Assembly (NCBI GenBank): GCA_964016885.1
Contig: OZ024740.1
Coordinates: 359,600,001-359,664,000, forward strand
Reading direction: 5' to 3'
DNA from: Eledone cirrhosa
Taxonomy: Eukaryota
Length of the DNA stretch: 64,000 bases
The first letter of the stretch is position 1. Every line of letters begins with the position of its first letter. The translations under genes and the position numbers were made by a program. Under the pieces are notes generated by a model. The model had not been told where the DNA came from. It was given only the letters and a program-made list of their open reading frames with translations, and made no database searches. This document shows, piece by piece, positions 1-62,822 of this stretch.

Positions 1-3000
1 AGGCATATAGTAAATTTGGTTCAAGATATGTTTACGACTGAGTTTAATCACTATATATGCTCCCAAAAGTAAGAGTTGTTCCCTTCCTTTTAACTGGCAG
101 TTTTGAATGAATTAACATGTACATTGCCAGAGCAAGTACTTTACAGTTGCATTATCTTTTTACTGCTACCTAAAAATACAGGAAAAAAGGTGAAAACTGT
201 GGTCCCCCTCAAGCAAAGCGCAATGTGATTTGCTTATGGGCACTGAAGTCACTTTAGCATGTTTTGAACAATTTATTTATTAGCTAAGTTTCTGAATTTA
301 AAAAGCAATCATCTAAAACAATCCAACACACCAATTTGGCAGTTTTACAAGTAATGCCCAAAATTAAAATATTTTTTAACAAAATAAATTGCAGATATTT
401 TTGCCCCTATTTCTACAATGATCTAGAATGCAAGTATTAAATTTTCTGTCTTACTGAAATAAATATCATATATAACAAGACAAATATTAAATTATGGAAA
501 TTGAATTGATACCCACCAATGATTATCATATTTGATATCACAGCAGTTTCTGTAGTTTTGTGCTAGCTTGGCCAGAATTGAATTAAATTATCAGTGAATG
601 AGTAAAATATGAAAAATAACGAGTTTTAGAAAACAATGTACATTGTTACCTATTTACCTAGACTTCACTTGGATAATTCTAAATTTTTCATAGCATTTCA
701 TATAGATTTCTAATCTCTTACATACTTAGCATGTCTATATGCAATTATTCATTAATTGTTGCACCTATTAGCAATAGCTAATGATTTGGATCTAATAAAA
801 TCTTACGCAAACTATTTTAACATGCCTCATACATAAAACCAACATGGCAGTTACCCATAAGTATCTATATTTTCCATAAGACTATACAACATATGGAACT
901 CTTAAATACTTTCAAATTAGAAATTATTTTTTCAATTCATATTCAAAATCTATCTTATAATTATATCACCAAATTCACGCAAATAAATAATTAGCAATTG
1001 TACGTTATATAACTTCAGTATTGCAGCAACTCCAAGATCAGTTTTTAGCACGTTACCACCAACACTATATCACTCTTAGCTTTATAGCATATGACAAATA
1101 TTTTTAAGTTAACCATTGGGGATAAAAATGAACAACAGGGATAGAAAGAGAGATGAATATTGGAGTAAGGTTAGCCATTTTTGTATTGAATGCAGCATGG
1201 GATAATGTACAAAACGAGGGAGGTAATTTAAAGGCATCAACAATTCTTTTAAGTAGTACCCAAGTTAGAAATAGTTATATTGAAATACACTTGGCTACAG
1301 ACAGCATTCCATAACCAAAATAAAAACCAACTTTCAATTTAATATTCAAAATTGAAATGTTAAAACAACCTCTAATTATTTATAACACAAAATTGCATAT
1401 TTTCGAACAAATGCATTTCTACAGATATAGACATAGGTTAAGGCAAACAAAAATGTAAGGCTGAAAATTGTGTTAATGAAAATTTTTTAAAGTCAGTTTT
1501 AAAGAACTGACATTAAGATATTAACCAATTACATCTTATGTATATTTTATATGATGATGTTCAACAGTATTAGTAAATTTCCAAATCATGAGCTTAACAT
1601 CTCAGTGTATAACTTTTACAACACTTGATATCAAACTGTTTAATTCTAAAATACACATTTTCATATAAGAATCTTTAAGTTATCTAACAAACACCTGCTT
1701 AATAAAGAGAAAGATAATTATCTTAATTAAACCCCCAAATTTCGTGATTATTTTCAAAATTAATTGAAAATCAATTGCTATGTTTGTCACTTGGCTAAGC
1801 AAGTTAAATGCACATTTTGGTAAAATATATGGTATCCATTCATAATTTTAAAACTTATCAGTTCATAATTTTACATTCAGCTGAGTTTAATTCCTTTGTA
1901 TTCAATCACTTCTCATTTCTTAAATTCACTTTTATGATCTAGCATATTTTGCAGTTGATTGCTTCAATGATTAGCTGTAGCATGCTGAAATATTTTGACA
2001 TTCAGAAATGAACATTCATAATTTATCCAGAGTAACAATAACAGCATGTTGTGAAGTTTTCAGTAATGAAAGTTTAACAGAGGAAATCATTGCAAAACAA
2101 AGATAGCCAAGATTCTTCAAATTTAGTAATAAGTAGGTATATTTAGGGTGAAGTCATTCAATAAGATGGTCAACGGAAAGCATTAAAAATGGGATAATTT
2201 TCAAGAAAGCAAGTTAAATTAATTGCATTTAACACTTACCTTCAGTAAAGGTTGCACTGAAGTAAAAATAAAAAATGCTAGCAAATAGGGAAGATTTGAA
2301 GAAATATAGGACAGTAGTTATATATATGTGGCCTTAACTGTTTTGACACCACTCATAACTACCATGCACTATGAATTGCCAGAATTAAGGCTTTAGATTA
2401 TATAAGGCCTCAGTCGCATAATTTGTTGAATATTTCATCAACAGTGCAGCTATAAAAAAATTTGTTCTATGTTACAATCATGAGAAAATAACATTTATAA
2501 TGCAATATAAATTATCAATAGCTGAATCTATTAAAATCATGTTCAAGCAAACTGCCTGAAACACATAAACTGGTGTTCTGACATAGAAAAATTCCTTCAA
2601 TGAATATAATTTAAACATTTGTTTATGACTAGTAACTCTAAAGTGTAATTTTTATAAATAAAGTAGTTTTCAAATATTTGAGTAATATTTAACACAAGCA
2701 GAAACGCAGTTCATGAGATGAGGTATTTTAGTGTGGAATTAAAAAAGTGATGGAAAAAACAACTTAGTATAATCTTTTTAGTATATAAAAAAGATAACTC
2801 AAATTATCTTCTCTCACTCCCTGGGTTTGTGGTATAATATACTCATGCTAAAAATGATTGAAAATTATATAAGATATAATCATCTTTTTTTTCAGATATA
2901 TAAAATCTTATATTACTTTCAAGGATCTATAGACAATACATTAAAAACATCACATTTCAGAAGAATTTTCTTTCTATTAAGTACATCTATATTCTTAAAA

Positions 3001-3164
3001 TCATTACCTGAAATGAATATATCTAACTAAACAATGCATGTTTCCACTTAGTTTTGTATCAGTACTTAAAATATGCTGGAGGGAGCCTCTGTGTTTGTTC
3101 AACCAATTAGAAACAGCTGCTAAATCTCCCTCAAATTACACCCTACTATCTTAAAAAGCTCAAA

Positions 3165-3710
3165 AAGAAAAGCATGGCAGGTTCGGAGCAAAAATCAAGG
3201 CGATGCAGATTTCTTCGACTACCAAGGCATTGTGAATCATGAATACATACCAGATGAACAAATAGTTACAAAGGAGTACTATCAGAAAATCCTCTGACGT
3301 CCTCATGTTGCAATTCAGCACAAGCAACTGGATCTCTGATCTTCGTACAAGTCACAGCTGCATTATGATAATGCCCAAGTTCCTTTGTCACAGTTGATCC
3401 AAGGTTTCTTAGTAAGGAAAATCATTTCACTCACTTGCTAGTCTCCCTGCTCTTAAGAAATAGCTCCTTCTGATTTTGGATGTTCCCAAAAATGAAGATA
3501 CCACTGAAAAGCCTGTTTTGAGAGCCAAAAGGATATCATGTGAACTGTGATGGCAGAGTTGAGAGCCACTCCAGAAGAAGGATTCAAGACAATGAAGGGA
3601 TTGCTGGATTAAGTGTGTGGAGGAACAAGGAGCTTACTTCAACAGGACATAGCAATTAAAACCCACCAATATACATTTTTTCCCAACCTAAAGTCAGATA
3701 CTTTTTCAGC
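3165..3710 (+). mobile_element. Decayed mariner transposase relic
   Basis: Broken frames give FFDYQGIVNHEYIP..IVTKEYYQKIL, LHYDNAQ, EIAPSDF, FPKMKIPLK and WIKCVEEQGAYF, the mariner catalytic-domain motifs, with stops and frameshifts. Confidence 0.8.
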
Positions 3711-4689
3711 AGACCTTGTTATATACATATATGTAGGCATGTGTGTGTATGTATGTATATACACATATATATATATAATGATGATGATATATCTGAACAC
3801 TGAAATAAAAGTAATTAGACTGAAAATAAGGCATAAGAAACTGCAAAATATAAACTCACATCAGTAGGTGACTGACATACAGCTTGATCTTGTGTAGTAA
3901 TTCTGTTCTTGTAGACTATAAGCTGTTAGAAGAGGTTTTCCTTTCCTGCTAATCAAATATTAAAATTCCAAGAGAATTTTTGCATATGATATGCAACAAA
4001 TAAATTGCTTTAGTCAGCAAAGCAGATGGTTTTAATGCTTAACAGCATTCTTTGTAAACTGTGAGCAAGGAACGAACCAACACTTCAGAAACAAAAGAAC
4101 TTTATTTCTCATAACAATCATACAATATCCATTTCCAGCACAAACAACATAATTCACAACAGTATCAGGTGGCATTATTTATGTCTCTATGAAACTTGGT
4201 TGCCAATTTAAAAAATGGATTTATAGCAACTTGTAAGATTTTTTTCCAATTAATTTATCTGCATGTGATATTTTAAGGGCACTTGTGGCAGTTCCATGAT
4301 TAAAAAGTATCTTGCACAAATATCAACCAAAATTAGTAAATTTAGTAAATATTTCAATACTTTCTATATTGGTGGAATAGTCCATGCTGCAATACCATTC
4401 AATTTTAGAATATATTAGGGATTCAAATTTATTGCATCAAATTGAGATAGGATAACAAATTTAGCACCGTTATCTGAGAGTAAAATGAGTGGAACATCAA
4501 ATCTTCAACTTATACCCTACTTCCTCAATACTTCTACAACAATGGAAAGCTTCAATCTATGAGGAATAGAGCCAACAATTGTGCTTGTAAATAGAAAGGT
4601 ACCTTATGAACAACAGTTATTTTATTGTAGTCATGATTCTTATATATAACACTAGCTACATAACCCATTATATCATTTTATGTATGCTT

Positions 4690-5470
4690 TTCCAAGCGGG
4701 CATGGGTTGGACAGGCTGTTGTTATGGACCAAATCAGTGCTTAACAGAGCTAGTCCTCTTAGGTGGGCCACGGTTTGCATCTCATCTTACTTACACACAC
4801 ATCAGTTATGGTATGGTTTCTATGGCTGGATACTCTTCTTAAAAACAACCACTTTATAGAATGTACTGGACACTAGAAATAACTGTCAATTATAAAACCA
4901 TGTACCCCGATATAATATGGGACACTAATTGATCAAGTCATATGAAGAATATATGACCACAAATTCCTGCTTCACAACTTTATTATTAAATAAAAACTAA
5001 GTAATTACATTTCCTCCATCTCGCATGCATTTCCATATTCTACAGTGTACTGGGTGCATTTTATCATAGCACCAGTTCTAGGGAGATTGTCGTGCCTTTG
5101 ACACAACTGAGGAGTCCTCTTGACTCTTTGTTTGGCAAGTTTTCTATGGCTGGATGCCCATCCCATCAATCACTGTATTTTATCATGACACCAACACTAG
5201 AGGCGGCTGTGCCCTTGAAACAATTGAAGAGTCCTTACAATCTTTTTTTAGCATGGTTTCTATAGCTGGATGACCTTCCTATCACCAGCCACTTTACTAT
5301 GCATACTGGGTGCATTTTGGTGACAACAGCATTAAACAGGTTCTCATGTCATGACAAGTCCTCTCAACCCTTGTTTTGGCATGGTTTCTACAGCTGGGAA
5401 CCATTCTTAACACCAATCACTTTACAGAGTGCACTGGGTGCATTTATCTTGAGACCAGCACTAGGGATGT
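4690..5470. repeat. Degenerate tandem copies of a ~125-bp SINE-related unit
   Basis: TGGTTTCTAyRGCTGGA...CACTTTAyAGArTGyACTGG recurs near 4815, 5140, 5255 and 5383; its reverse complement occurs near 12860-12900. Confidence 0.55.
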
Positions 5471-6944
5471 TATTGACTTAACAGCCCTCTTTACTGTATG
5501 GTGGCAGGATGATGACTTGTCCCAAGTTAGTCATGTTGATGGGGGTTGGATGGAGAGAGGTAAAGTGGGTGATAGGCAATATGTCATTGTTGAAAGAAGG
5601 ATGACATGTCTGGTGTCATGGATATGTTGACAAGTATGGTGGAAGTTGGCATGGTGATGTAAAAGAGAAGAAAGGAGGAACAGGTGATCCCAGATAAAGG
5701 TTAAATATAAATATAGTGAAGATGAGAACAGTTACTAAAGCTGTTATTTTTTTATTTTTCTTATCTGTCAGCTCTGAGATTGTGGGGCAAGAGCGTATCT
5801 TCAAATCAGACACCTGAGCAGAATGCTTGCAACAGGGAAAGCTCTGCTAAAGGCACCCAAAGGTCAAGAGGTGGAGTTAAAGCTGGAGACTAATACTACC
5901 AGTCAAATGGTTGTGACTTAGTCATGAAATCACCAATTTTCAATTCCCACTATGAATAAGAGATAGCTAAATGATTTGATTAAAAAAACATTCCAGACAA
6001 ATGTTTTTTTACTAAGTAACAATATATTCTTATATAATTTTGCTCTGCTCTAAAAACTGATAAAAATTGAAATTCATTCCTGAATAGTTATATTGAAATA
6101 AATATAAATATAGTTTTTAAATTGCCAGACTATTTACTGTTGGTATTTTACTCTACACCAATACAAGTGTAGTTATGTGAATCAGTTCTTATCTCACAAT
6201 AAATAATATAGCCATTTACAACAGTATTTAGAAATTATCAAACTATGTTGGACAGAAAAAGAGATTTTATACACAAATTCAGTTATTTTGATTCAATATA
6301 AATTAAAAACTCAAGTGAAAATTCAATTTTAAATGTTTTGAAATTATATCAATACCACTTGAGGGTTTATTTTCAGTAGAGGTGATTCATTAAAAATCTT
6401 TTTTCTATAGTTATAATTAACATTAATTTGTGCCTTAGGAACTACCATATCTTTTTAATGCAAATCTCAAGTATTTCAAGCCATATCTCTTTAGTTGACT
6501 ATTTAGGCAAGTCGAGACTTTGTTCCACAAAATATTTTATAATTCTTTCTCGGGTACTAGTTACATGTATTGAGTACTTTTTTCTTGTTTATACCTCTAA
6601 ACACACATACATACCAAATATTTACACCAGACATGTTCAATGCGACACAAATTATTGCCAATTTCATTTCCTTATATACTGTTCACCACTGATATTTACA
6701 TCCTACTTTTACACAATTGTTCTTTCCACAGAGTGATAAGCATGCTGTGGTTACTATTCATTTCAAAAACAACCCATCACATTCTGCCTCAAGGGCATAA
6801 GTGGCAAACATTAAATAATAACAAGCTAAAATATTTTGTAGTAGAAAACCCACACGCTGCAAAATATGTTATGAATTGGTGTGAGATTAATTTATTCAAA
6901 TATATTTACACATTAGTGCAGATATGACTGAAGGAGGTCATTTC

Positions 6945-7200
6945 TCAATCAGTTTGGTTCTGGATTCAGTACTGTTGCATGGCACCATGGGCAAGTGTCG
7001 TCGTTATAGCCTTGGGTTGACTAATGCCTTGTAGAAGGAAACTCGAAAAACGTGTGTGTGTGTGTGTGGAGGGCGGTGTTTATGTTCATGCCCCTTAACT
7101 TAGCAATTCGATGAAATATGTACCAGAGTCAATATAACCTACTAAATAAAGGCTGTGTCCCAGTGTGGTCGCAGTCTGATGACTGGGTTGAAAAATTAAA
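6945..7200 (+). mobile_element. tRNA-derived SINE relic with CORE-like segment and internal (TG)n
   Basis: GGATTCAGT...GGCACCATGGGCAAGTGTC...TATAGCCTTGGG; a related copy lies at about 59350-59660. Confidence 0.55.
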
Positions 7201-7469
7201 AGGTAATCCTGTCTTAATGCAATTCAATGATCAACCTGTTCTGGTATAATTCTTTCACAACAAATTTATTATAAAATATACTGAAAATGTACAAATTCTT
7301 CTATCCTTTACACCTAAAAGTGTAAAATTCTCAAATAATTTTTTAAGTTGGACTGTTCAGATTTTTTCTTTAAATTGAACATTTTAAAATGTGACTTTTG
7401 TTAATGTATGTCTTTCTCTTTTAAAAGGAGTCACTCTACTCCAAAAATAAACCAGCACTTAAAATTATA

Positions 7470-8484
7470 TTATTAATGACATAGATGCCAACTTAAAGAA
7501 TGCCACAGAACTGAAATATGCAGATGACATCAAGCTGTACCTTGAGATAAAAAGGACAGATCCTGAACACTATAGATCTTGCCTGCAATCTGACCTGGAC
7601 ACAATGCAACAATGGATCACAGACTGGCAACTCAAGCTAGCTGTGGACAAGTGTACCACCATGCATTTTGGGAGTAAAAACCCAGCGTCCACATACTCCC
7701 TCCACAACACTAATATCAAGAAGTCTTCTTGTGAACGTGACCTGGGCATTACGGTCAGCAGCGATTTGCGTTGGACGAAGCACATCTCTAAAATTGTCAA
7801 GAAGGCCAAGGGTGTCTTAGCATCACTCAGCAAGACCTTTGTCAGCCACTCTCCAGCTATCTATTTTAAGCTATATACAGCTATGGTATGACCACACTTG
7901 GAATTCGCATCATCAGTCTGCAACCCCTATCTTGCTCAGAACATTGACCGCCTGGAAACTGTTCAGAGACCTGCAACCAAGCGAATACCCTCCATCAGGC
8001 ATCTACCATACTCTGAACGCCTTGCTTCCCTGGGCATGGATACATTGAAGCTCCGACGCCTGGCAACTGACTTGGTAAACACCCACAAAATTATTAACCA
8101 TCTTGCCAACAACAACCCCGAGTACCTTTTTGATTTCCATGTGTCTAACACACGTGGGCATGCCCACAAAGTCAGAAAACAGCACAGCTCCCATGACTTT
8201 CGGAAACATTTTTTCACGCTCAGAGTTGCTGAAAGATAGAACAAATTACCTGCATCAGTTATTAGCTGTCGAGACACTGCATCCTTTAAAACCTCCATGC
8301 TTCCTGAGATTCGCCAACACTACACCTAATATTCCTCCTCCATACACACGCACACATGTATATCATAACTCACACTATTCACTTCCCTGACATTTGTATA
8401 TTATTCTATGTACTATACATACACCTTTGACGAGTTGTAGTGCACCTGAGCACTCACTGTACACAATAATTTCATTATTATTGT
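7470..8484 (+). mobile_element. 5'-truncated CR1-clade LINE (RT C-terminus and 3' UTR)
   Basis: KYADDIKLY...ERDLGI...RPHLEFASSV...NTRGHAHK...HFFTLRVAE; closely matches 51825-52965; ends in an (ATT)n tail and has in-frame stops. Confidence 0.9.
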
Positions 8485-9053
8485 AAATAGAAAACTAGAA
8501 ACAATTATTGTATGTATATATGTGTGTGTAAACGATTATGGGTTCACGCTGGTGTGAAGTATAATAAAGTGAAAAAAGTACTCAATACTGTTAGGTAGAG
8601 TGGAATAATATTTATTCAAATTTGAATCCACGTAGTTTTTCATTCTTGGACATTCAGACGGCTCTGCCGAATACAAAAAAACTCCGAGTATATATATGGA
8701 GAGAAGTATTGATAAGTGTCTACATGTATGTGAGATATAGGATGAAATTATTCCAGAAAAGAAATTCAAGCTATGATAAAGTGCTACCATAATATAAATT
8801 TTCCTTCGACTTATATTAACAAAATCTAACTTCTAAAATCTCACACAACTTAAGATTCTTCATTACACCAGTTTCATTTTTATATCCAGACATTTCAATA
8901 TCCTGTTCTTAGCAAATTCCCACTTCAACCCAAACACAGAATTACAAACTATTTACTTTTACAAAACATATAGAATTCTAACCAGTTTGCTTATAAATTT
9001 ACAATAAACTTCCGACGGTCACACATTGAATAGCAATTCTAAATTTATGGTCA

Positions 9054-9262
9054 AGTTTCAGATTAATCACGCCAGTTTCGGATTCCGTATTGAAATTTAG
9101 TTTGCGGAGTTAATATTTTATGTTTTCTTTAATGTTGTTGCTTTTTTAATCCAGTGAATTAATTGATATAAAGTGTATTTTGTAATTTGTTAACGAAAGA
9201 TAAAGTTTCGTTATTGTAACTAACGTACTGAATCCGAAACTAACATGCTGAATCTGTAACTA
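9054..9262. repeat. Degenerate ~37-bp inverted repeat, possible MITE relic
   Basis: AGTTTCAGATTAATCACGCCAGTTTCGGATTCCGTA at ~9054 resembles the reverse complement of ~9225-9262. Confidence 0.35.
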
Positions 9263-10069
9263 AATTAACACACCAAACAGAATTTATATATGTATTCTAA
9301 TCGTAGCTTATTGCCAAATCTGTATTTAGTCAATTTCTGGCGACTTGTACCGGATACAATGACATACGTGCCAGAGATCTCGTTAATATAGAATCGATGT
9401 GGCATTCTTCCATCTTTGTCTTTCAAATCTAATAACACAAGCGGTAATGACACCTCACAACAGGAATACTGAAGCCGTTGGAGATTTATACTCACATCAA
9501 CTCCTTAACTGACTGCCAACAGCAATAAGATCGTTCAGGATTCCTAGCCGTAGACTCTTGCTTGAAGAAGCATGGGAGGCACTAGTATTAATGAGATTAA
9601 ATCGACTCAAGTACTTTTATAGATGCAGGAGAGATGAAAGCAAAGTTGACCTTGGCAAGGTTTTGAGAAATGCTATAAGGTATTTTGTCCGACACCAACG
9701 ATTCTGACAATCTGTCGATTTTAGACAACTACAGTTTTGCTTATTTTGGAGTAGGGGAAACATTGTAATGCGAAATCTATAAAACTATTTTCAGAAGCTG
9801 CTGAGGAAACATTACATTGGCTAGAAAAAGTATTTGGTAACAACAAAATCTGGAGCAGATTTGATTTTTAAGTTTAAAATATTTAATTCATTAATAAAAA
9901 TTCTATTTTTCAAGACTATGTAAGGGAATTTGTAAATCAGAAAGCTGGAGGAAACCGAAAAATTGAAACTAATTTATTAAAATATTCATAGTTTGAATGG
10001 TATAAAACGACCACAAAACTTATAGAATTCTGTTTAAATTCTTACCAACTTATTTACGTTTATATTACA

Positions 10070-10352
10070 ATAATTGTTTCTACTTTTTGCACAAGGCCAG
10101 CAATTACCCAGTGCATTAATGGTACTTTATTTTATCGACCCCGTAAGGATGAAAGGCAAAGTTAACCTCGGCGGGATTTGAACTCAGATCGTAAAGGGAC
10201 GTAACTTCGCTGGAAAGCATGTCCGACCCTCTACCGATACTGCCAATTCACCGCCCTTTTATATTACAATAATTGTTTCTACTTTTGGCACAAGGCCAGC
10301 AATTACAGGGTGTATTACTGGTACTTTATTTTATCGACCCCGTAAGGATGCC
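10070..10352 (-). mobile_element. tRNA-derived SINE, full copy plus adjacent partial copy
   Basis: On the minus strand: box A-like TGGCAGTATCGG, box B GAGTTCAAATCCC, body TTTCATCCTTACGGGGTCGATAAAATAAAGTACC, tail GTAGAAACAATTAT. Confidence 0.85.
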
Positions 10353-11269
10353 TTTCTTTGGCTTTGTTTTCTTTAATTCCTCACCTAAACATCTCCAGAT
10401 TTCCTTATCTAAAACAAAACAACTATTCCTATTTCATGTTCACTTATCACATACTTGAATTCACTGCACCTTTCCAATTCACATTCATTCCATTTTCAAA
10501 TCAATGCAGCTATCCACTTTTATCCTCCATACTTCATATCAGATATATATTTATATTTTTTACCAAATCAATTTCTTCCTGTTCATCTCACAAAAAGAAT
10601 CCATTAGACTTTGCAATGTTCACTTTTTACTATTCCTGTGAGAAAATTTCTCTGCTTTTCTCTTGAGTGGCCTAATCTGAAGTCTATTTAAGACGCAGAC
10701 ACAAATAGAAAAATATAGTGCCTAAATATACACTTACCTGGTTCTCAAATCTCTTAACAAAACATTATTTGAAAAGGTAAAAAATATATAAAAAGCAAGA
10801 CAGTTGCTATTCAGTGTACAAAGTATGTGATAGATTGTACAATCAGTCAAGTTCATTGTTAGTGTTGAAAGAGATTGAGTTTGTCAGATCATGGGGAATG
10901 AAACAATCAAAATGTCAAAACAAAAGGTTAATTATGAATTACACAGTTTGTTAAAAGTTACAAAAGATGGACTTAGGTCAACATACAAAAAAAATTCAGC
11001 ATTATGTAGAGCAAATGAAAATCGTGCAATGTCTGAAAGACAACAATTTCAGAAACATTTTGATATTCCCAGTAAGACTGATAAATAAAAGCTATAAGAC
11101 TAGAAAATTCTTTCTAGAAAAAAATAAGATTTGGGGAGAAAATGTGCTAAAAGTTTTGCTATTTAAGAAGGAGGTTCTAATTACACAGAAATCCAATACA
11201 TAGCATGTTGAAGGTTCAACATTCCAGATAAATCTTCAAAAGCAAGCAAAATAATTTATAATTCATATG

Positions 11270-12500
11270 ATTTATTGAACTAATGGAAAATTCTACAAGA
11301 ATAAATTAAGATAAACAAAAACCCATTTCATATACTATCTGTCACATAGAACATTGGAAAATTCTAGAACTGCTAAAGCCAATATGATTTTGAATTGATG
11401 GAAAATTCTACAAAAATGAATTAAGATAAGCAAAAGCCCCACTTCATAGCTGTCTGTCACAGAAAAATTGAAATATTCTAAAAGAATCTGTTAGACTTAA
11501 AAGCCAAGTCCTGTATAATCTCTAAGTTTTATTGAATTGATTTAAAATTCTATACAAGAATAAATTAAGATAAAGAAAAATTATTTTATATGCTGCCTAT
11601 TACATAGAATAACTGGAAAATTCTTATAAAATCTAATAAAACTAAAAGCAAAGTCCTTTATATTCTCAGTTTTACTGAATTGGTAAAAAAATTCTATACA
11701 AGAATAAATTAAGATAACCAAAGGCCCTATTTTATATGCTGCCTGTCACAGAACAATTGGAATATTCTAGAATCTGGTAAAACTAAAAGCCAAGTCCTTT
11801 ATAATGTCTAAACTTTATTAAATTGATGGAAAATTCTCCAAGAATAAATAAGATAAGCAAAAACCCTATTTTATATGCTGCCTGTCACATATAAAAATTG
11901 GAATATTCTAGAAGAATCTCGTAAGGGCAGGCCATATCTCATAAGCTTCATTGAATTGATGGAAAATTCTGAAAAATAAATTAAAATAAGCAAAAACCCT
12001 TCTTCATAGCTGTCTGTTAGAGAAAAATATTAATATTCTAGAAGAATCTGTTAAAGTTAAAAACCAAGTGCTTTATATCTAAGATATTGAATTGATAGAA
12101 AATTCTACAAGAATAAATTAAGATAAGCTGTCACAGAAAAATTGAAATATTCTAGAAGTCCTTTATAATCTATAAAGTTTTATTGAATTGGTGGAAAATT
12201 CTATACAAGAATAAATTAAGATAAGCAAAAGTCCTACTTCATATGCTGCCTGCCACAGAATAATTGGAATATTCTAGAATCTGGTAAAACTAAAAGCCAA
12301 GTCCTTTATAATCTCTAAACTTTATTGAATTGATGGAAAATTCTACAAGAATAAATTAAGATAAGCGAAAACCCTATTTTATATGCTGCCTGTCACATAT
12401 AACAATTGGAAAATTCCATCAGTATGAGGTAGAGCCAAGTTCTTTATTTCTCATTAGTTGCACTGAATAGATGGAAAATTCTAGAACAATTGGAAAATTC
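11270..12500. repeat. Minisatellite, ~10 copies of a ~140-bp AT-rich unit
   Basis: TTGAATTGATGGAAAATTCTACAAGAATAAATTAAGATAAG restarts at about 11275, 11390, 11532, 11675, 11818, 11951, 12087, 12183, 12325 and 12463. Confidence 0.9.
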
Positions 12501-12789
12501 CAGAAATATTTGATAAAGTATGCAAAACCTCAATTCGGAACTGATAGAAAGTTAAAAATTTAACATATTTATGTTGTTATAAATCACTGCTAGAAAATTC
12601 TAGAAGAGTCATTTGGTATAAGCAATGCCTACAGCAGACCAGACTTCCAACGAGTACAAGCTGAAGCATATTTACAGTATGCCCCACCCCACCCTCCCAT
12701 ACTAGCGTGAAAATGGACGTAAAGACGGATGTGATATGTGCGTATCTACACAAATATGTATATATAAACCATGTGTGTATATATGTATA

Positions 12790-13005
12790 TAACATCCAGC
12801 CCACACTGTAAAGTGGACGTGTAAAAGACACGGCAAAAAGCACCTAGCACACAGTCAATGTGGTTGGCGTTAGAAAGGGCATCCAGTCGTAGAAAACCAG
12901 TCAGAAACACTCCTATATGAGCGAGACACGGTCACCCGACCCAACTTGCCTCTAAATGGGACCCGTCTAGAGTGGAAGATAGACGTTATTCGATGATGAT
13001 GATGG
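12790..13005 (+). mobile_element. SINE relic with (GAT)n tail
   Basis: GTGGTTGGCGTTAGAAAGGGCATCCAGTCGTAGAAAACC motif and terminal GATGATGATGATG. Confidence 0.5.
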
Positions 13006-13949
13006 TCCACATCATATTAGCAATGCATAGCATACTGCTGGAACATTCTAGTAGTTTATCTGCAAGAGTCAACAATACTAATCCATCCCATCTTTTTCTC
13101 AAGACAAACTATATCTAGGACAGCATTATCTAATTGATCAAATGATAAGATATGATTTGAAGAAAATTTGGCTGTTACTTCTAGCAGGTCAACTGGCTGC
13201 ATAGAGAATGTCATGCTAACTCCTTGAAATCTTTGTGAAATTCCTTGGTTAAAAAAGGGAGGGGGAGAAAATTGCAGGATAAAATTTATTCCAAAACTGC
13301 ACAAAGTAAGAACTGTTCTGAATACAAAAGAAAAATACAGATTGTCAATTTTAAGTGAGCTACATAGAAGACGGTCTATGTGAAGGCCATGTCCACATCC
13401 CCGCATTTAAGACAAAACCAATAAGATATATTCCAAAAATGCAAAATATTAGAATGGTCATATTAAAACCTGAAGACCCAACAACAAATAATGACCACTG
13501 AGCAGATTAGAATCTGGAAATATGAATTTCATATTTCGGAATTCTATGATCTGGAAAAATAAAAAATTCCAGATTTGACAGGTATTTAATGCACTTAAAT
13601 TGACTGGAATCTCACAGAAACATTAGAATAAATTTTTATAAATGTAATAAATTAGAAATAATCAAAAACATAGATAAGGTATTGTGATATATCTATACCC
13701 AATCAAACATCCTATTATAAGATATTGATTATCGAATGCGAGAAAATTCCAACTGGCTAACCAATAAAAACACAACTGAAAGTTCCAGAATATTGAATCA
13801 GATAATGACAACCGGCATTCAGCAAGTCAAAAAAGTAAACATTTAGACTAACTGAACTTAAATGTCTCTAAACAAAATACAACCGACTCAGGAAATTCGA
13901 TACTAATCGTGTGAGAGGGTAGACATCAAATCAGCGCTTAAGCACTCAC

Positions 13950-14235
13950 CATCCAAAATGATATTCTCAGGTTTTACCATGGGTAGAAGATAATTTAAAG
14001 GTACAAAAACATCTTCTCCTGTAGGACTGTTTCCCAGACATACAGTACTAGATTGGGTGATTGATCCATAATAGTTGGACTGTTGCATCCCCTTCTTAGT
14101 TGGCCATGTCATGCCGAATTTATTTGCAATCAACGTTGCAGCCAGAGTCGAACCATTATTGCCTCCGATGCCGACTAGCATAACACCAAGGCGAGGAACT
14201 TTCCTTTCGGTTCGGAAAGTGTATTTAGTTGTTAT
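13950..14235 (-). CDS. ISYNA1: Inositol-3-phosphate synthase 1, coding exon 2
   Basis: ITTKYTFRTERKVPRLGVMLVGIGGNNGST...SNYYGSITQSSTVCLG...LLPMVKPENIILD|G contains the MIPS GxGGNNG NAD-binding motif; acceptor TTTTCAG, phase-1 donor GTGAGT; 286 nt. Confidence 0.92.
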
Positions 14236-14495
14236 CTGAAAATTAAAATGAAAATAGAATAAAATAAACTGAAACTGCGTTAACTCACAAGAGATAACTG
14301 AAATTAAAATAGATATATTTTAGTGAAAAATACATTATTTACTGATTACTAAAAATTAAAAGTTGATTTTCACATTGTTGTCTCTCCGTTATCTGTAGTC
14401 ATCGATTTATGAAAATAATACATTGAAAATAGCAATATATAAATATCGTAAAAACGTTAGAGTAGATCGTGTAAGTAAATTTGTTTTACACGTAC

Positions 14496-14621
14496 TGGTT
14501 CGGCGATAAGAAAATCTCCATCATTAGTAACTTTTGTACTCGAATAATCGTATACTGCTTCGATAAATTCATTGGTATACTTGACATTGGGAGATTGAAC
14601 TTTCATTAGCTTTCCAGACAT
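14496..14621 (-). CDS. ISYNA1: Inositol-3-phosphate synthase 1, coding exon 1
   Basis: MSGKLMKVQSPNVKYTNEFIEAVYDYSSTKV...IAEP (42 codons) matches the MIPS N-terminus; phase-0 donor GTACGT joins exon 2 in frame. Confidence 0.88.
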
Positions 14622-14942
14622 GATGAGATTGGTGATCGTTTGACAACTGATAACACGGCTGAGGAAGTTGAATTGACTTCGGTGCTTTGAATTCTTCAGC
14701 AGCAAATATATAATGGTACTTCGATAATTTATGTATTTATATATTTTTTATTTACTTATTTATAGACAGAATGGAATTTTCTAAATTTATATATCATTAA
14801 TTGGAGCTTAAAAAAAAACCCGTTGAAGGGGGACATAATGATAGATGTAAAGAAGGAAAGGCAGGTAGTTGTGCCATCCCTCCTCTATATTTATTATGCA
14901 TAACGCACTTAGGTAATTTTCCATCCATCATCCGTATTGTTA

Positions 14943-14982
<40 letters not shown>

Positions 14983-15899
14983 GAAAGGTATAGAAAACAT
15001 TGTAGCAAAAAGCCAACAGTATTATAAGTGACTATAGCGTCAAAATGGGGAAAATAGTTAACTTAAGATGTGGGAAAAATAATTCAAACTCATCTCAAAG
15101 AGAATCAGGATATAGATTCATCCACAGAATTTAGTGAAATCCAGGGATTGTATATGTATATATATATATATATATACATAGTATCTGCTATACTGCGGCT
15201 ACAACTCCGATTGTTATTTATTTGTGCCAAAAGTAGAAACAATTATATATAGTGTTTTATCATAATATATTTTTCTCTATTTTACTTATTATTATTTTAA
15301 TGAATAAAGAAATCATTATTTAATAAAATAAACAATGTCTAACAAGTGACTAGAACAATTACTTCGTGGAAGAGTCATTTTAACCTTTTAAAAACACAAA
15401 TGCTTTTAATTTTACTTTAGTTTTTAGTATTTAGGCATACTACATCTTGGTCCAATCTGTCCTTCCTTCTTCAATCGGCTGTTATTTCTTGCATATCAAA
15501 GAAGGGAGTCTGTGTGATCACTCGGCCTGCTAGAAAAAATAGGCAAATATCCCTAAAATCGTATACTTTTTTTTTAAATAGAAGACATAATAGAGTGCAA
15601 CTACCGATACTGACTTTGTTTCTTCATAAATTTCTTAATAATGAATATTTTTAATGAAATTTTCGAAGGAATAGATTAATATTCTGTTGATTAAATCTAA
15701 AAGAAAAATGATGTATTTCTTTCTTTTTTTTTTTCCGCAATTCAAAAACGTAGAAATGACTTCGCGCACTTCTAGAAAACCTGATTATCCTGATTTATAT
15801 TATTCATTAGCTACATGTAATTGGAAGGCAGGGTGAAATAATTAGCCTACTACAAACTCTAATCGAAAATATTAAACTATACAATATAGTAACAATATA

Positions 15900-15999
15900 C
15901 AGGGTGTCCTCCCAAAATGTATACACACTTTGATTACCTGTCCAGGCAATATTTATATGAATGCTGTTGAAGTGTGTATACATTTTGGGGGACACCTTG
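15900..15999. mobile_element. 100-bp Tc1/mariner-type MITE
   Basis: TIRs CAGGGTGTCCTCCCAAAATGTATACACACTT and AAGTGTGTATACATTTTGGGGGACACCTTG, with TA on both flanks. Confidence 0.85.
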
Positions 16000-16931
16000 T
16001 ATATTTAAATATTTTGGGGGGGAGGTTGGTTATTTTTATTGCTTCATCATAACTGTAATTTACCTCATGGAAAGGTGCATTTACAATATTTCAGTTAAAT
16101 ATGAATTATTAAGCAAGTTATGAGGTAACTAAGTCGGAGATGGGGGTAGCAGTAAACTAGTTAGGCCACCAAGGCGTTATGGTTATGACTAGAATAGTTT
16201 TTAAAGTAAAGTTAGAATTCAATGAGATTTGCCTGCTATTTCTAGCAGATAAAGCGACCACATAAAAGCTCATATTCAGTTTCAATAGGAAGTGGCGTGT
16301 TTGTTTGACACGTTGCTTAGTAAAGAAAGGTTTAATTGTTTCATTGCTTGCGGCTTTTCTTGTTTTTGTAATTTTATAAGGATATTTTAAATGTATTATT
16401 TTAATAAATTAAAGCAAATAAATATTGTATATTTAAACATAAATTATAGCATTTATTTTGACGTTAAAGGGTTAAAATATAAACGATGTTCACATATTTC
16501 ACTTGTAAAAACTCCGTGTAACATATAAAACAGATTTCTATTTTATCTTATCAAGAAAGAAAAAATAGGGCGATATCCAATTTTAACGGCCTAAATGCCG
16601 CTTACTTGCTGTAGTTGCTGCTTACTTCAATGTATGAGGCTATTCCAACAAATTTACATTCCCCTTTTTTTAGCCGTTAAAAGAAATATAGATTTATTTA
16701 TTGTTGTTTTTTTTTGCGATTTATTTGCCACTGGGGCATAGATTTCTTTATTTGCCCCTTTTTTTTTTTTTTTTTTTTTTTTGCGATTTATTAGCCTTTT
16801 GGGGTCACACACACCCCCGTAGAAAGTGTGCGACCTTTCTGCCAGGGAGCACAGAGAGAGGGGGTGTTCCCTTCTCTTACCTGTACAAGCCGATATAGAG
16901 AGATGGCCCACTTACACGGGCCATTATTGCT

Positions 16932-17120
16932 GGATTGGCAGTATCGGTAGAGGGTCGGACGCCATGCTTTGACGCATAGAGTTACGGCCCTTTCCATTCT
17001 GAGTTCAAATCCCGCCGAAGTTAACTTTGCCTTTCATCCTTTCGGGGTCGATAAAATAAAGTACCAGTCATGTACTGGGTAATTGCTGGCCTTGTGCCAA
17101 AAGTAGAAACAATTATTGCT
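16932..17120 (+). mobile_element. tRNA-derived SINE inserted in the left foldback arm
   Basis: Full SINE flanked by ATTATTGCT (16923-16931 and 17112-17120); the right arm has the empty site. Confidence 0.9.
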
Positions 17121-17399
17121 ACTTTCACCCATCTTTCATGGAATTGGCTGGGACTGAGTGCCTTTTTCTCCACCTTGATCCTTCTTTCGAAGTGGTATCG
17201 GAAGAAGAGGACCATTTGTTGGCCGGCGACATATCCCCACAGTTTCCTCGTTGCAAACGCATCTGGGACATTTCTTTTCCAAGGGGTTTCCGTCCCGGAA
17301 TTCGTGTCTGTAGAGCCTTTCCCGAACGGGCAGGGCCCCTCGGTATAATAGTAAGTATTAGTGGTTGTAATAAAAATGCAATCAAAATGTAATAAATAC

Positions 17400-17535
17400 C
17401 TTCACTGATTTCTTTCCTTATATTATCAACAGAAGTTGGTATGTCACCCAAAGTTCGCTTTGTATGTTCCCGAATAGCAGTGAATTTTGATAAAACTGTT
17501 TCTAATTCCTTCTCCACAGTAAGACAAATATCCAT
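17400..17535 (-). pseudogene. RMND5: Captured first coding exon of RMND5/GID2 E3 ligase (left-arm copy)
   Basis: MDICLTVEKELETVLSKFTAIREHTKRTLGDIPTSVDNIRKEISE resembles the RMND5A N-terminus as I recall it (MDQCVTVERELEKVLHKF); followed by a phase-1 GTATTT donor and AT-rich intron; no downstream exons. Confidence 0.75.
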
Positions 17536-17708
17536 GTGTAGTCCAAAAAGATATAAATCTTTTAAAAAATTATAATAATTCTTTATTATTATTTTCTTTT
17601 TCTGTAAATAATTATTTTTCTATATATCTCAAACCCTGCCAAACACCACATCTGTCCATCTGTAAATTTAAATGACTGTTCTTTCATACTTATCCTCTTC
17701 AACTACAC

Positions 17709-17844
17709 ATGGATATTTGTCTTACTGTGGAGAAGGAATTAGAAACAGTTTTATCAAAATTCACTGTTATTCGGGAACATACAAAGCGAACTTTGGGTGA
17801 TATACCAACTTCTGTTGATAATATAAGGAAAGAAATCAGTGAAG
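17709..17844 (+). pseudogene. RMND5: Captured first coding exon of RMND5/GID2 E3 ligase (right-arm copy)
   Basis: Mirror of 17400-17535 with one amino-acid change (A20V) and one synonymous change; same GT donor at 17845. Confidence 0.75.
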
Positions 17845-17899
17845 GTATTTATTACATTTTGATTGCATTTTTATTACAACCACTAATACTTACTATTAT

Positions 17900-18260
17900 A
17901 CCGAGGGGCCCTGCCCGTTCGGGAAAGGCTCTACAGACACGGATTCCGGGACGGAAACCTCTTGGAAAAGAAATGTCCCAGATGCGTTTGCAACGAGGAA
18001 ACTGTGGGGATATGTCGCCGGCCAACAAATGGTCCTCTTCTTCCGATACCACTTCGAAAGAAGGATCAAGGTGGAGAAAAAGGCACTCAGTCCCAGCCAA
18101 TTCCATGAAAGATGGGTGAAAGTAGCAATAATGGCCCGTGTAAGTGGGCCATCTCTCTATATCGGCTTGTACAGGTAAGAGAAGGGAACACCCCCTCTCT
18201 CTGTGCTCCCTGGCAGAAAGGTCGCACACTTTCTACGGGGGTGTGTGTGACCCCAAAAGG
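17900..18260 (+). mobile_element. Tx1/L1-type LINE 3' fragment inside the foldback arm (mirrored in the left arm)
   Basis: RGALPVRERLYRHG...KKCPRC...EET and FFRYHFERRIKVEKKALSPSQFHERWVKVA resemble the zf-RVT C-terminus also seen at 30990-31100. Confidence 0.7.
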
Positions 18261-18667
18261 CTAATAAATCGCAAAAAAAAAACAAACAAACAAAAAAGGG
18301 GCAAATAAAGAAATCTATGCCCCAGTGGCAAATAAATCGCAAAAAAAAAACAATAAATAAATCTATATTTCTTTTAACGGCTAAAAAAAGGGGAATGTAA
18401 ATTTGTTGGAATAGCCTCATACATTGAAGTAAGCAGCAACTGCAGCAAGTAAGCGGCATTTAGGCCGCTAAAATTGGATATCGCCAAAAATAGATTATAT
18501 GCCACAACAAGAGGTGCTGGAATTGTCCTCTTATAGATGTTTGAGGCAAGTCAACACACACGCAACATTGCCGCGGATGATAGTGAGTCTAAAACGTTGG
18601 AATAACTAAGCACCTTCGGTAATGTGAGCCGTCAACTATTACAAGAACATTATTGATATGGCCCTTG

Positions 18668-29039: not shown

Positions 29040-31310
29040 TTAATGCAATGGCGTGAGGTCGTTTTGGAAGCAAGGTCACTGAACATTAGCGAAATCAGAA
29101 TTTCCGAGGCACGAGCCTTTGCACCCATTTTCGGCAGCTAGGATATGGAGGTGGGGTCGCTGTATTGTTTCGGAAAGATTTAGATTTCATGACACGAACC
29201 ATCTTTCTGGACCCAGAAGGTAGGTTGGTAGGGACGGGCGTGACCAGCAGCAAAAGGTATGCCTTTAGGCTTTTGGCCGTCAATGCTCTGGCGGTCGCAA
29301 TACGGCCTGATTTCTTCAGGCACCTAGGGAGCGCTTCTAGGAACGTTCGAGGAACGTCCCACTCTTTGTGTGACTGGAACAATATCTTAGAGACATGCTA
29401 TAACTGTGTGGAGCTAGCAGAAAGAGGAGAAGGGTGTGAAACCCTCGCAAACCTACTCAGATATTTCCAACTGTCTGACAGGTACCGAGTGGATTTTCCG
29501 AATGTGACAATGTGTACATGGACAAACTGCATCGGGTCATCTAGATCGTATTTAGATAGGGTATTCTGTAGGAAAGTAGATAAGGCTAGCATGGCTGTCC
29601 ACAATTCAAAGTACTCGACTATACAGACAACAAATTTGTGATCTGTACAATCGATAGGCTTCATAGACAGATACCCGATTACTGGAAGCTGAACGCGTCG
29701 TTTCCGAGACCGGGTAAGTGAATTAGTTAAGCAAGTGTTAACAGGGGTAATCGTCAACAACGAATGGTTGAAAAGGACAATTAGAGTAGAATCAATAAGG
29801 TTTAGTGAAGGTGTAGCGATAGAGAAAACTAGAAAACTAGATTAGAGAGAGGGCTAGTTAGAAATCTAGAGGAAGCGTTTAGGAAAGGCAACGCAACTGA
29901 CGTGCTTGCAGCGAGATTGTCTCTCGACAAATTCTTCAACGTAAAACACGAAGGCTGCGTTGTTATGGCTATGATGTGTGCTCTTAGACACAAAGGAACG
30001 AAAGTAGTTCAATAAGCCCGGTTGATGGTGGCGTGGTGTGAAAACACAGTCACAATCCGGTCATTAGCGGACCACGACGGACGCAGATGTGTGAGACTTT
30101 TCATCAACACTTCGCTCCACTGTTTGGGAGCAGTGTTGGGTCGGATCAGGAGATGTACTTCAGTGCCTACCTCAATGGCCTGCCACGGCTCTCGACCACG
30201 GAGGCAGACTGATGTGAAAAGCCAATAACAGCCGCTGAAATACGGGGGTCAATGACTAATTACACAAGGGGTAAATCACTTGGTTTAGATGGTCTGCTCT
30301 AAGAGCTTTCCAGACGTCGTCTGGACGTTGGCAGACATCGTCTACAGCAACTGGCAGAAGAACGGGAGAATTTCCAGTTCTGTGAGCTGAGGGGCAGTGG
30401 CGCTGCTGAGAAATTATTCAAACAAGGGGGACTATATTAATAATTTTAGGCCCATAACTCAGCGAAATGCAGAGTTTAAAATTTTAGCCACGGTGTTAGA
30501 AACAAGGTAGGCGCTTGTCGTCGGTTATCTGATAGGGGACTGCGAAGATGCGCCATCCCGAACAGATCCATCTACGACTACTTCCACCTCATGCGATACA
30601 TCATAGATAGGGTGACTAAGGAAACTGGCACGGGTGGAATGCTGATCAATTTAGATCAATCGAAAAGTTTCAATAGAGTTGACCATCGGTACTAGAAGGC
30701 AACCCCCAGGGCAGCTGGCTTCGGAAACGTTTCCCTGAGAATGGATCGCTGTAATGCACAGTGACGTCTGCTCTGTTGTCAGAGTATACGGTCACCTCTC
30801 GGTGATTCTGAATTTATGTCGAACAGCTGCTGTCTCGTGTAGGATGGATCGGGTTATCAGCTTAGTTGATGGCCCTCCTTTAACCAGGAAGGGAAGGTTG
30901 TTTTTATTTGCCTGGTAGCCATGGTGAAGTGGTCGTATGGTGGACGCGTCTGAAAGGGTTGAAGACGGACAGTTTCCTTTTCGATGACACTCTCATTGAC
31001 CTTTTCAGGTTTCACCTGAAAAGGAAAAATAGGTTGGAGAAGGAAGTAATGCCTTCAAAGCAATTTATTGAAAGGTGGGTGAGAGAGGCGAGAATGACAG
31101 GCCTTCCCTGAGCGTTTACCTGTAGTATTGAAAGAGGACAACTGGGAGGGGCTCTTGCTCTGGGTAACCGTTACATTGTGGGCTTCCTTGGGGAATATTT
31201 TCTTTTGTTCTAATTTTAACCTTTTCGTTATCGTTTCCTTTTACACGCAGAAACCCACATTGGACCGTCCTGTGTTGCTCTTAATGAATTTTTTATGTAA
31301 ACCCTTTGTA
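29040..31310 (+). mobile_element. Decayed Tx1/L1-clade LINE (APE, RT and C-terminal fragments)
   Basis: GGGVAVLFRK...DPEGRLV...FRLLAV, TWTN...SRSYLDRVF, KSLGLDGL, NFRPIT, LDQSKSFNRVDH; many disablements. Confidence 0.8.
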
Positions 31311-31620: not shown

Positions 31621-32699
31621 TTCAATTGTAAGAACCACAAAAGGTCCTTGATGTATAACCACTAATGATAGCTTTTCCCATGGTTGTTGTCCATAAATGT
31701 TTTACATGTTGCTTTGTCTGGTCATACATTGTAATTTTCAGTAACTATGAGGCCGAAATAAATCAATTGAGTTGAAATTTATATAATATTCAAGTCATTC
31801 GAATATTTAAGACTTGATATAAGAGTTTCTGTTCACATTTAATTTTCTTTGTCCGTTAGATGGGCATTCTACTAGTAAGCTTGAATTAATCAATTAAATT
31901 TATATTCAGCTTGATGCTATGAAATGTCATTTATTTTTTCAAATAGAATTATCACTAATAAAATAGATAAATATCTGCAGGCGTACGATCAATAAACAAA
32001 CAGGTTTGGTGGTTTAGCTTATAACACACTAAAGCACAGGTTCACAACCCATTTAGGCCAAACGCCCCCTTTTGTCCCTCGAAATCACGAAACGCCCCCT
32101 ACCCTATTTTTCCATTTTTCAATATACTTCTGATTTTGATATCAGTAGATTACTAAAAAATTGATTAACAATATTCCAAAGATACCATTGCAGGCAGCTG
32201 AGAGTATAAATACATTCCTTGAAAGGAAATATATAAATTTAAAAAAAAGGAACATAAATGTTCTTTTTTATGAATAAGGACCAGTTGAATTTGTTATATT
32301 CTCACCAGGCGATACCAGCTATTTTGAACATTTATACAAGAGCAACTCTGTCTATCCCAAGTGTGCTCTTATCTGGAAGAAAGTGGCAATTATATCATTT
32401 CAAAGCTTTCCAATGTTCCCTTTAATGAAACGGACAGGATAAATGTTGATATCTAACTTGATGTCCGTCCGTCGTCGTCGTCGTCGTCGTCCCCCCCCCC
32501 CCGCTTTGTGACCACGGAAGAGGGTATATTTATTAGTAAATGGTAAAATATATACAACAAATGAGTAAGTGAATTGAAGTAAATGGTTTCCAATCCAGGC
32601 AGACTGCAAGTACAAATAAAAAAAATTGTTAGTTTACTTTGTAACAATAGCATATCCAAGTTTTCGGATAAATCAACTTACTTTAACTTTGACCTTATT

Positions 32700-33762
32700 T
32701 CAATGTGACCCTTGAGCTTCATGGAGTCTAGCTAATTCTTTGATGCCAGGCTGGATTTTCGTAAGATGTAGCCGGAGATCTCCACGCGTAATTACATTGT
32801 AGCGGTTGCGAGCCTTACTGTACAGTCTGGAAACAGCGCCAAACCCCCTCTCGACTAAGTATGAGCTTGGAAAAGGCAGAGCAAATCTCTTAGCGTCTGC
32901 ATGTAGGTGTGGAAATCGACGCTGAATTTCCTCTTGCATCCCCAAAAGGGGTTCACCTATTTTGGGAAATCTAATTTTGATCATGTCATCTGCTTGAAAT
33001 TCAATGCATTCTTCCTGAAATTTAACGTCCAAATCATCGACGTTAGCTATGAAGGGATCTGCTATCCACATTGGGATGTCCATCGGCAAAAGGTCGACAA
33101 ACCGTTCTCTCGTGTTGTCTTGTAGCGCACGGAGGTGAGTGATATAAATTTGAAGTTGATCATCGCTTACAATGTTTTGAACATTGGCGACACTAGGAAA
33201 ATTATAGAATTCCCGTCAACAAAGATTCTTTTCGATGACATTCAATTTGGCCAGGAATGTTTTCACAGCATTCCTTGTTTTAAGCAAGGTGATCTTCTCC
33301 CCCTGCAAAGCCAAAATGACGCTATTGCATTTGTCGAAGATGTCGGTGAGGTAGGTGCAGTTTTGCCTCACATCGAGGGTTTTCTTGTACAGTTCTGTGT
33401 TGCGTCCTCGCAGAAAATCAATGATAGAATCGAAGAGTTCAAAGAAGTGGGTAAAGCACTTGCCCTTTGAAAGCCACCTCACTTCAGTATGAAGGAGCAA
33501 CTTGACGAATTCTTCGTTATTATCTTGGCACAGTTGCCGGAAAATTCGTTCATTGAGAGCATGGCGTTTGATATAATTGATGATATCAATGGCTACCTGC
33601 AAAGACTTGCTCAGCGGTTCGCTGTGTTTCTTCGCAGCCAAGTGTTGTCTATGAATGACACAATGAACAGCAAATACAGATAGATTTTCTCTCTTCAGAA
33701 GAGTGACGAAACCCTTATGTTGGCTGACCATTGCTCTTGCGTCGTCCGTAGCACATGATACA
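32700..33762 (-). pseudogene. hAT transposase C-terminal two-thirds (ZBED5/SCAND3-like), frameshifted
   Basis: CATDDARAM...VHCVIHRQHLAAK...LLLHTEVRWLSKG...FPSSYLVERGFGAV...RGDLRLHLT...QGSH. Confidence 0.88.
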
Positions 33763-33764
33763 AT

Positions 33765-34360
33765 GTGTGTTGTATGTGGTCCTAGATGTATGTATTACCT
33801 GCCTGTGTGTTGTATGTAGTCCTAGATGTATGTATTACCTGCTTATGTATTGTATGTGGTCCTAGCTGTATGTATTACATGCTTGTGTGTTGTATGTGGT
33901 CCTAGATGTGCGTATTATCTCCTTATGTGTTGTATGTGGTCCTAGATGTGTGTATTACTTCCTTATGTGTTGTATGTGGTCCTAGATGTATGTATTACCT
34001 GATTATCTGTTGTATGTAGTCCTAGATGTATGTATTACCTGATTATCTGTTGTATGTAGTCCTAGATGTTTTTATTACCTGATTATGTGTTGTATGTGGT
34101 CCTATATGTTTGTATTACTTGCTTATGTGTTGTATGTGGTCCTAGATGTATGTATTACATGCCTGTGTGTTGTATGTAGTCCTAGATGTATGTATTACCT
34201 CCTTATGTGTTGCATGTGGTCCTAGATGTGTGTATTACCTGCTTATGTATTGTATATGGTCCTAGATGTGTGTATTACCTGCTTATCTGTTATAGGTAGT
34301 TCTAGATGTGTGTATTATCTGATTATGTGTTGTATGTCGTCCTAGATGTGTGTGCTACTC
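33765..34360 (+). repeat. Tandem array, ~15 copies of a 40-bp unit
   Basis: Consensus TGTGTTGTATGTGGTCCTAGATGTATGTATTACCTGCTTA, head-to-tail without spacers. Confidence 0.95.
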
Positions 34361-37273: not shown

Positions 37274-37353
<80 letters not shown>

Positions 37354-37471
37354 TTAGTTAAGCAAAACAAGACCACAAATTTCACAAGGAGGACATTATT
37401 AAAAGATTGTCAACATATTTTAGTTTGATGTAAGTAATGTAAAGAATAATAATATTAATAATAATAATGTC

Positions 37472-39290: not shown

Positions 39291-39313
<23 letters not shown>

Positions 39314-62810: not shown

Positions 62811-62822
62811 TTATATATATAT

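Follow-up and report, generated by a model that had tools for sequence, protein, structure and literature searches.

Genomic Context and Architecture of the Element

The window, that is, the whole 64-kb stretch of octopod DNA analyzed here, contains a foldback element of 1,917 bp (16569-18485), in which two inverted arms each carry an exon assigned to RMND5A, a LINE-like tail and an outer terminal part (Table 1). An inositol-3-phosphate synthase gene has its start codon at 14621, and the element lies ~1.95 kb upstream of it. No exon was found upstream of this start codon, and the later exons of the gene were not located.

By global alignment, the two arms share 775 matching positions, with 8 mismatches, one 2-bp gap, one 1-bp gap and an extra 189-bp insertion on the left side. 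Past the inner arm boundary, base agreement drops to 9/20. Both termini read GGCGATATCCAATTTTA, starting with GGCGA, and no further occurrence of this 17-mer was found in the window at up to three mismatches. Exact copies of the 8-bp duplication AAAAATAG abut the two termini. The chance agreement of random 8-mer pairs in this window is 7.4e-5, and the 8-mer itself is found 8 times in the 64 kb. The preliminary description had reported near-identical arms of ~785 bp that differ by a SINE and point substitutions, a 159-bp spacer, GGCGA termini and a perfect 8-bp duplication, and the alignment bears out each of these features. The SINE, which has five more near full-length copies in the window (86-93%), is confined to the left arm, so its insertion is later than the equality of the arms. 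Five other inverted repeats in the window lack GGCGA ends and show no clear flanking duplication.

Table 1. Coordinates of the foldback element, its parts, and other features of the window
Feature	Position	Strand	Basis
Minisatellite arrays, two	11244-12490; 33764-34371		
Inositol-3-phosphate synthase, two coding exons (start codon 14621, second exon from ~14235)	13945-14621	-	PF07994 E 1e-29; PDB E 7e-30
Nested inverted repeats, old and degenerate, immediately to the left of the element (48 nt, 71%; 39 nt, 82%)	15513-16262		
Stretch resembling the left junction of the element	15532-15552		86% over 21 nt
Target site duplication AAAAATAG, left copy	16561-16568		Sequence, alignment
Left arm, the inverted counterpart of the right arm, with a SINE	16569-17542	-	Arm alignment
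Outer terminal part of the left arm, mirroring the high-copy terminal family; inner limit approximate	16569-16761		Mirror of 18294-18485 by arm alignment
LINE-like piece in left arm, split by the SINE	16799-17345	-	blastn
SINE (16932-17111) with 9-bp flanking repeat ATTATTGCT; left arm only	16923-17120	+	Alignment; window copies
Exon assigned to RMND5A (first coding exon), left copy, 136 nt, then GT donor; ATG at 17535	17400-17535	-	Sequence comparison
Spacer, 159 bp; from 17661 onward aligned with the part of the parent-like contig that precedes the start codon	17543-17701		Run X5 record 10
Right arm, 784 bp; runs on from the apparently parent-derived spacer	17702-18485	+	Alignment, runs
Exon assigned to RMND5A (first coding exon), right copy, 136 nt, phase-1 donor; ATG at 17709	17709-17844	+	Profile, protein comparison
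Read-through ORF of 136 codons (45 assigned to RMND5A, 91 from linker and repeat), mirror at 17125-17535; probably due to chance	17709-18119	+	Shuffles
GT donor and intron-like linker; approximately the first 8 nt match the parent-like contig	17845-17898	+	Run contigs
5'-cut LINE-like ORF2 tail and 3' region	17899-18256	+	Loose ends at 17899, very high depth, tblastn
Outer terminal part common to a far more abundant family; GGCGA end; short internal repeat; inner limit approximate	18294-18485		X1 depth
Target site duplication, right copy	18486-18493		Sequence, alignment
Broken LINE: endonuclease-like ORF (29090-29638) and ORF2 tail (30974-31099) akin to the arm piece	29090-31100	+	E 0.002 (endonuclease-like ORF)
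Repeated segment, second copy at 47096-47494	32066-32466		96%
Two adjacent ORFs, presumably a broken hAT-type transposase	32700-33794	-	Sequence likeness; no Pfam match
Inverted-repeat pairs (277 bp, 95%; 193 bp, 98%; 75 bp, 96%, respectively), ends unlike GGCGA, no clear 8-bp duplication; probably other miniature DNA elements	37347-38618; 55537-56207; 63274-63540		
Gag-like and reverse-transcriptase ORFs, which we take to be a Ty3/Gypsy-type retrotransposon	43125-45585	-	Judged by eye
CR1-like LINE, long ORFs at 48447-52681; 3' kilobase recurs at 7471-8482 (87%)	48447-52966		RVT_1 match
ORFs presumed to encode a Penelope-type reverse transcriptase and GIY-YIG endonuclease; related fragments at 38799-39292 and 58729-59007	61651-63764		Sequence likeness; no Pfam support

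Identity of the Exon and of the LINE-Like Tail

In each arm an ATG is followed by 45 codons, one extra base, and then GT. The preliminary description had taken this exon for RMND5 from apparent similarity and expected its 45-aa peptide to find RMND5A. The lone peptide does have human RMND5A as the top of six matches, in register (1-40/1-40), but only at E 0.086. A direct word search with the same peptide gave no match, and an Atlas search gave no usable match. Among 1.84 billion proteins, 49 relatives were found, with 44 or 45 residues aligned in most of them, and the profile of these and the two arm peptides matches RMND5A at E 2.5e-9. The top relative, P0003, led to P0060, a protein of 401 aa with a CTLH domain. 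P0060 has a match to human RMND5A at E 5e-156, and its cluster includes Octopus and Argonauta proteins annotated as RMND5A. These relationships suggest an octopod cephalopod as the host, probably none of the species so annotated. The arm peptides agree with P0060 at 36/45 and 35/45 positions, and with P0003 at 39/45 and 38/45. Genomic read-through ORFs part after ...SEG, while spliced P0060 runs on as ...SEV. Since the read-through ORFs lose similarity after the same codon, the exon boundary (codon 45, phase 1) is conserved. Judged by the profile and by the comparison with P0060, both of which uphold the RMND5 identity, the arm exons are the first coding exon of RMND5A. No second RMND5 exon is present in the 64-kb window, and on these grounds a location of the element within or next to its parent gene is rejected here.

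Each arm had been described as an exon, a donor with intron, and a Tx1 LINE fragment, in this order. The exon and the GT donor stand. Past the donor, ~8 nt match the parent-like contig considered below and are followed by a 46-nt linker, which may or may not be parental intron. The LINE-like tail also stands: it is a very abundant repeat of very high depth, and it resembles the segment at 30974-31099, downstream of the endonuclease-like ORF, by tblastn (E 6e-7). Its assignment to Tx1 is presumed, and no Pfam, protein or Atlas match supports this clade.

Probable Copies of the Element in Public Sequencing Runs

Four of the 12 sequencing runs were compared, namely X1 (organism A), X5 (organism B), X6 (organism C), and X10 (RAD-seq raw reads), with X2-X4, X7-X9, X11, and X12 left out. 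No RNA run appears among those listed, which speaks neither for nor against expression. The comparison covers the spacer, right arm, and flank from 17554 rightward, and the contig figures below are those among the pieces listed (24 of 1,304).

The clearest picture is provided by X1, where the spacer contig has a depth of 332.1 and the exon contig 641.1, a ratio of 1.93. The depth of 1300.7 at 17705 equals 641.1 + 659.6, as two junction contigs of ~330 predict. Other arm pieces have depths of 556, 727, and 760, and the lowest contigs among those listed are at 10.7-20. Because the spacer and exon contigs are far above these lowest-depth contigs, the whole foldback is likely a multi-copy family. 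Summed contig depth is not a copy number, by the tool's own statement, and with the one-copy level set from few listed contigs (~11-20 in X1, ~15-33 in X6), the depths suggest roughly 15-30 elements and 30-60 exon copies in organism A.

The outer terminal part behaves differently. In X1 its depth is 3,000-14,700, against 760 just inside and 54 beyond 18515, with a summed depth of 10,400-14,700 over the last 150 bp of the element. As the outer part is so much deeper than the cargo, the true terminal family is short and far commoner than the cargo-bearing form; judged by depth, the original terminal repeat would be the outer ~190-230 bp alone. One X1 contig departs from the element at exactly 18485 into other DNA (joint, depth 12.7), so that a second site is known from one side.

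In X5, for which depth was excluded from copy-number use (low, with the library type unrecorded), record 9 has 219 nt, that is 30+159+30, and record 11 begins at 17702, the pattern of breaks given by a foldback. Depth is zero over 18405-18485 in this run, though the interior is present.

The situation in X6 is different. An unbroken contig spans 17572-17818 at a depth of 250, and the next contig has 266, a ratio of 1.07; a second junction of comparable depth is absent among the listed pieces. From the unbroken contig and the ratio, the exon is likely undoubled in organism C, which thus probably carries the spacer and a single exon. At low depth, X6 also contains variant copies in which the start of the exon lacks 2 or 3 bases (record 18 and gap rows 17705 and 17729), suggestive of older, decayed members of the family.

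The right arm of this copy differs from X1, X5, and X6 at 17767 and 17801, and from X1 and X6 also at 17960. At each of these positions the runs named carry the left-arm letter, so the right-arm changes are private.

Two further lines were rejected. In X10, 89 varied loose ends behind 18475 at first suggested many flanks, but the five listed molecule ends (17610, 17665, 17740, 18400, and 18475) are at AATT sites and are thus a library artefact. Scanning metagenomes for the terminal 17-mer led to 80 loci, none of which aligned over more than 28 bp, and these are put down to chance.

An assembly artefact or a one-off, immobile palindromic duplication could be considered, as none of the listed pieces (24 of 1,304) crosses the 18485/18486 junction of this copy. 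We regard it as extremely unlikely: a SINE carrying its own 9-bp repeat and 8 point changes set the arms apart, the two copies of the 8-bp duplication agree exactly, and the spacer, the two junction signatures, and high depth are seen in independent runs. The low likelihood given to an artefact in the preliminary description agrees with this, and its suggestion that the unit moved as one piece is supported by run depth, breakpoints, and the exact duplication. Target duplications were observed at one site only, and an empty AAAAATAG site was not seen among the listed run pieces.

Parent-Like Sequence and Age of the Capture

A contig of 510 nt from organism B (X5 record 10) aligns to 17661-17852 with 21 differences (~89% alike) and extends into the spacer. 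It was seen in one of the three contig runs and is read from its listed differences. Eleven of the differences listed fall in the exon, where six codons are changed and four others are altered silently. All six changed codons give the P0003 residue, and five of the six give the octopus RMND5A residue. Two of the eleven, 17767 and 17801, are those private to the right arm.

Beyond the exon itself, the alignment takes in 48 nt ahead of the ATG and 8 nt on the donor side. Since non-exon sequence is kept on both sides of the exon, the capture took place at the level of genomic DNA. On this alignment, part of the spacer appears to be parent-derived. The parent-derived sequence runs from the spacer into the right arm, and thus the right arm probably has the original orientation. 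In organisms A, B, and C, copies differ from the window by 0-3 positions over these contigs, and the parent-like contig by ~11%. This contrast points to an old capture and a young spread.

The order of events, single cargo and then double, is suggested by the 99% identity of the arms, set against the age of the cargo, and from organism C. The reverse order would have an ancestral foldback and, in organism C, a founder copy from which the inner portion of one arm had dropped out, hairpins being prone to deletion. The doubled form is found in two of the three labelled organisms, and in organism C the sequence left of the spacer lies outside the region compared (17554 onward), as this order would allow. 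However, the arms are ~1% apart and differ by private changes, against a distance of ~11% between the cargo and the parent-like contig, which needs either recent doubling or steady homogenization. In addition, the spacer continues the parental sequence of the right arm, as predicted if the right side is original. We therefore consider the ancestral foldback unlikely and keep to doubling of a single captured exon.

Comparison with Known Gene-Capturing Transposons

The element resembles the Pack-TIR elements of animals, of which 370 cases, defined by cargo between two repeats, are counted in the available text of one survey (Tan et al., 2021; PMC8277862). Both carry a host fragment in a terminal-repeat DNA transposon and are amplified by transposition. 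Inverted arms and a target duplication are present here, and the cargo comes from a host gene with its parent elsewhere, given the RMND5A identity, the parent-like contig, and the lack of any other RMND5 exon in the window. The location of the cargo is different: in the animal Pack-TIRs it lies between the repeats, whereas in the octopod element the exon is inside both arms, likely in 15-30 copies, and the single-copy cargo is part of the spacer. In that text, four of the 370 animal cases are multi-copy and the majority are hAT or TcMariner. A term search of its 12 supplementary files finds "Merlin" just as a column head and "Octopus" nowhere, with no case labelled Merlin.

A case of acquired DNA within the repeats is provided by plants. 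In the part available to us, Ferguson and Jiang (2012; PMC3310237), citing Hanada 2009 and Lisch 2002, describe acquired DNA in the extended repeats of plant Pack-MULEs and call the mechanism of this growth not understood. The captured sequence is likewise in a terminal inverted repeat, but these are plant MULEs, whereas the octopod element is from an animal, has Merlin-type ends, and likely has an undoubled sister form in a relative. Plant MULEs thus already provide cases of cargo within terminal repeats. For an animal or for Merlin, no example of such a doubled exon turned up in the literature searched, to which Repbase and most subscription journals are external. Cargo inside terminal repeats is supported as a variant of the Pack type. 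The earlier Pack-type reading, with cargo turned into terminal repeat, is supported.

Assignment to a superfamily relies on the ends. Merlin elements, in the available part of PMC8101967, have 5'-GG ends, an 8- or 9-bp duplication, repeats of 24-462 bp, and internal short repeats, with 191 sequences in Octopus bimaculoides. The octopod element shares the GG ends, the 8-bp duplication (at one site), and the short internal repeats. Its full arms of 784 bp exceed 24-462 bp, while the abundant outer part of ~190-230 bp is within this range. Gene capture by Merlin was not found in the literature searched.

The same structure and history could instead belong to a Mutator-like foldback. Long arms, capture, and acquired DNA built into extended repeats are MULE traits. 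In Drosophila melanogaster, Ssk-FB4 is likewise a foldback with long repeats (~700 bp in FB4) and a captured gene with introns at several loci, and the available text gives a near-whole gene held once, internally, with 9-10-bp duplications, expressed and selected (PMC8277862), whereas the octopod element has one exon twice, in its arms, and 8 bp. Octopus vulgaris has 21 recently active Mutator families against two of Merlin in the portion of PMC13282606 available. Long repeats, as in MULE foldbacks, are present here (784 bp), but they look secondary, the abundant part being ~190 bp, and the duplication is 8 bp at the one site known, not the 9-10 bp of FB4. GG ends with 8-9 bp form the very definition of Merlin, which is abundant in Octopus bimaculoides (191 sequences). 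Some MULEs make 8-bp duplications as well. We find the Mutator-like origin somewhat unlikely and treat the element as Merlin-like in what follows.

Proposed Origin and Function of the Cargo

The element is probably a non-autonomous, Merlin-like DNA transposon with two mirrored RMND5A exons, the result of a single capture, the copying of one end over the other, and neutral multiplication. In this scenario, a member of an abundant family with GGCGA-ended repeats of ~190-230 bp would have gained RMND5A DNA (the exon, its donor, and 48 nt or more of upstream sequence) beside a LINE-like tail. The uptake may have involved gap repair or template switching, both proposed for other Pack elements in the available text of PMC8277862. 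Decay of the cargo would have followed, down to ~89% identity to the parent-like sequence and with six residues altered. The left interior could next have been overwritten by the inverted right side, from 7 nt before the ATG, through a fold-back template switch or conversion, and the cargo would thereby have become terminal repeat. Spread of the doubled form, supported by contig depth and breakpoints, would have reached ~15-30 places in the genome of organism A, with a transposase, not seen in the window, acting in trans. No autonomous partner or IS1595-type transposase was found among 91 ORFs of at least 65 aa at 1-32,000 or in the scanned part of the remaining window. Finally, this copy gained the SINE and its private point changes, as shown by the arm comparison.

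Another scenario is retention of the element for a function, either as a long hairpin RNA that tunes RMND5A or as a truncated N-terminal RMND5A peptide that competes for MAEA. The inner 741 nt fold into a predicted hairpin of 312 pairs, as would be expected from any such inverted repeat; the ATG, frame, and donor are intact, and the 136-codon read-through frame is present; the N-terminus of RMND5A/Gid2 forms a coiled coil with MAEA/Gid9. On the other side, 8-14 random changes leave the ATG, frame, and donor undamaged in 35-55% of simulations, and the 91 codons stay open in 295 of 5,000 shuffles (~6%). The arm copy has six amino-acid changes relative to P0003, compared with four between P0003 and octopus RMND5A. 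Placement of this copy, ~1.95 kb upstream of the host start codon, in an intron is unsupported by any upstream exon. A retained function is accordingly quite unlikely. An intact frame does not point to selection here, and the exon is probably a functionless passenger.

A more far-reaching interpretation would make this the first gene-capturing Merlin family, seen on both sides of the cargo-to-repeat step, with 15-30 foldbacks as the source of long hairpin RNA (small RNAs, or RNA that is heavily edited) directed at RMND5A, the catalytic subunit of the CTLH ligase in octopods. In full it is very unlikely, the RNA role being its unlikely part. Without that role, a Merlin Pack family that includes a genuine before/after pair may be put forward tentatively.

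Multi-copy gene capture by DNA transposons is rare in the animals surveyed, with four families among 370 cases. Surveys keyed to cargo between repeats would likely read the cargo described here as repeat and miss it. If the proposed history is true, gene capture is extended to Merlin-type ends, and octopods with single and doubled cargo form a natural before/after pair for the growth of terminal repeats by absorbed DNA. A transcript through any copy would be predicted to fold into a long hairpin, and the captured part starts the MAEA-pairing region. Dozens of hairpins homologous to a conserved E3-ligase gene would thus be spread through the genome, where silencing or editing of the parent is directly testable in an animal.
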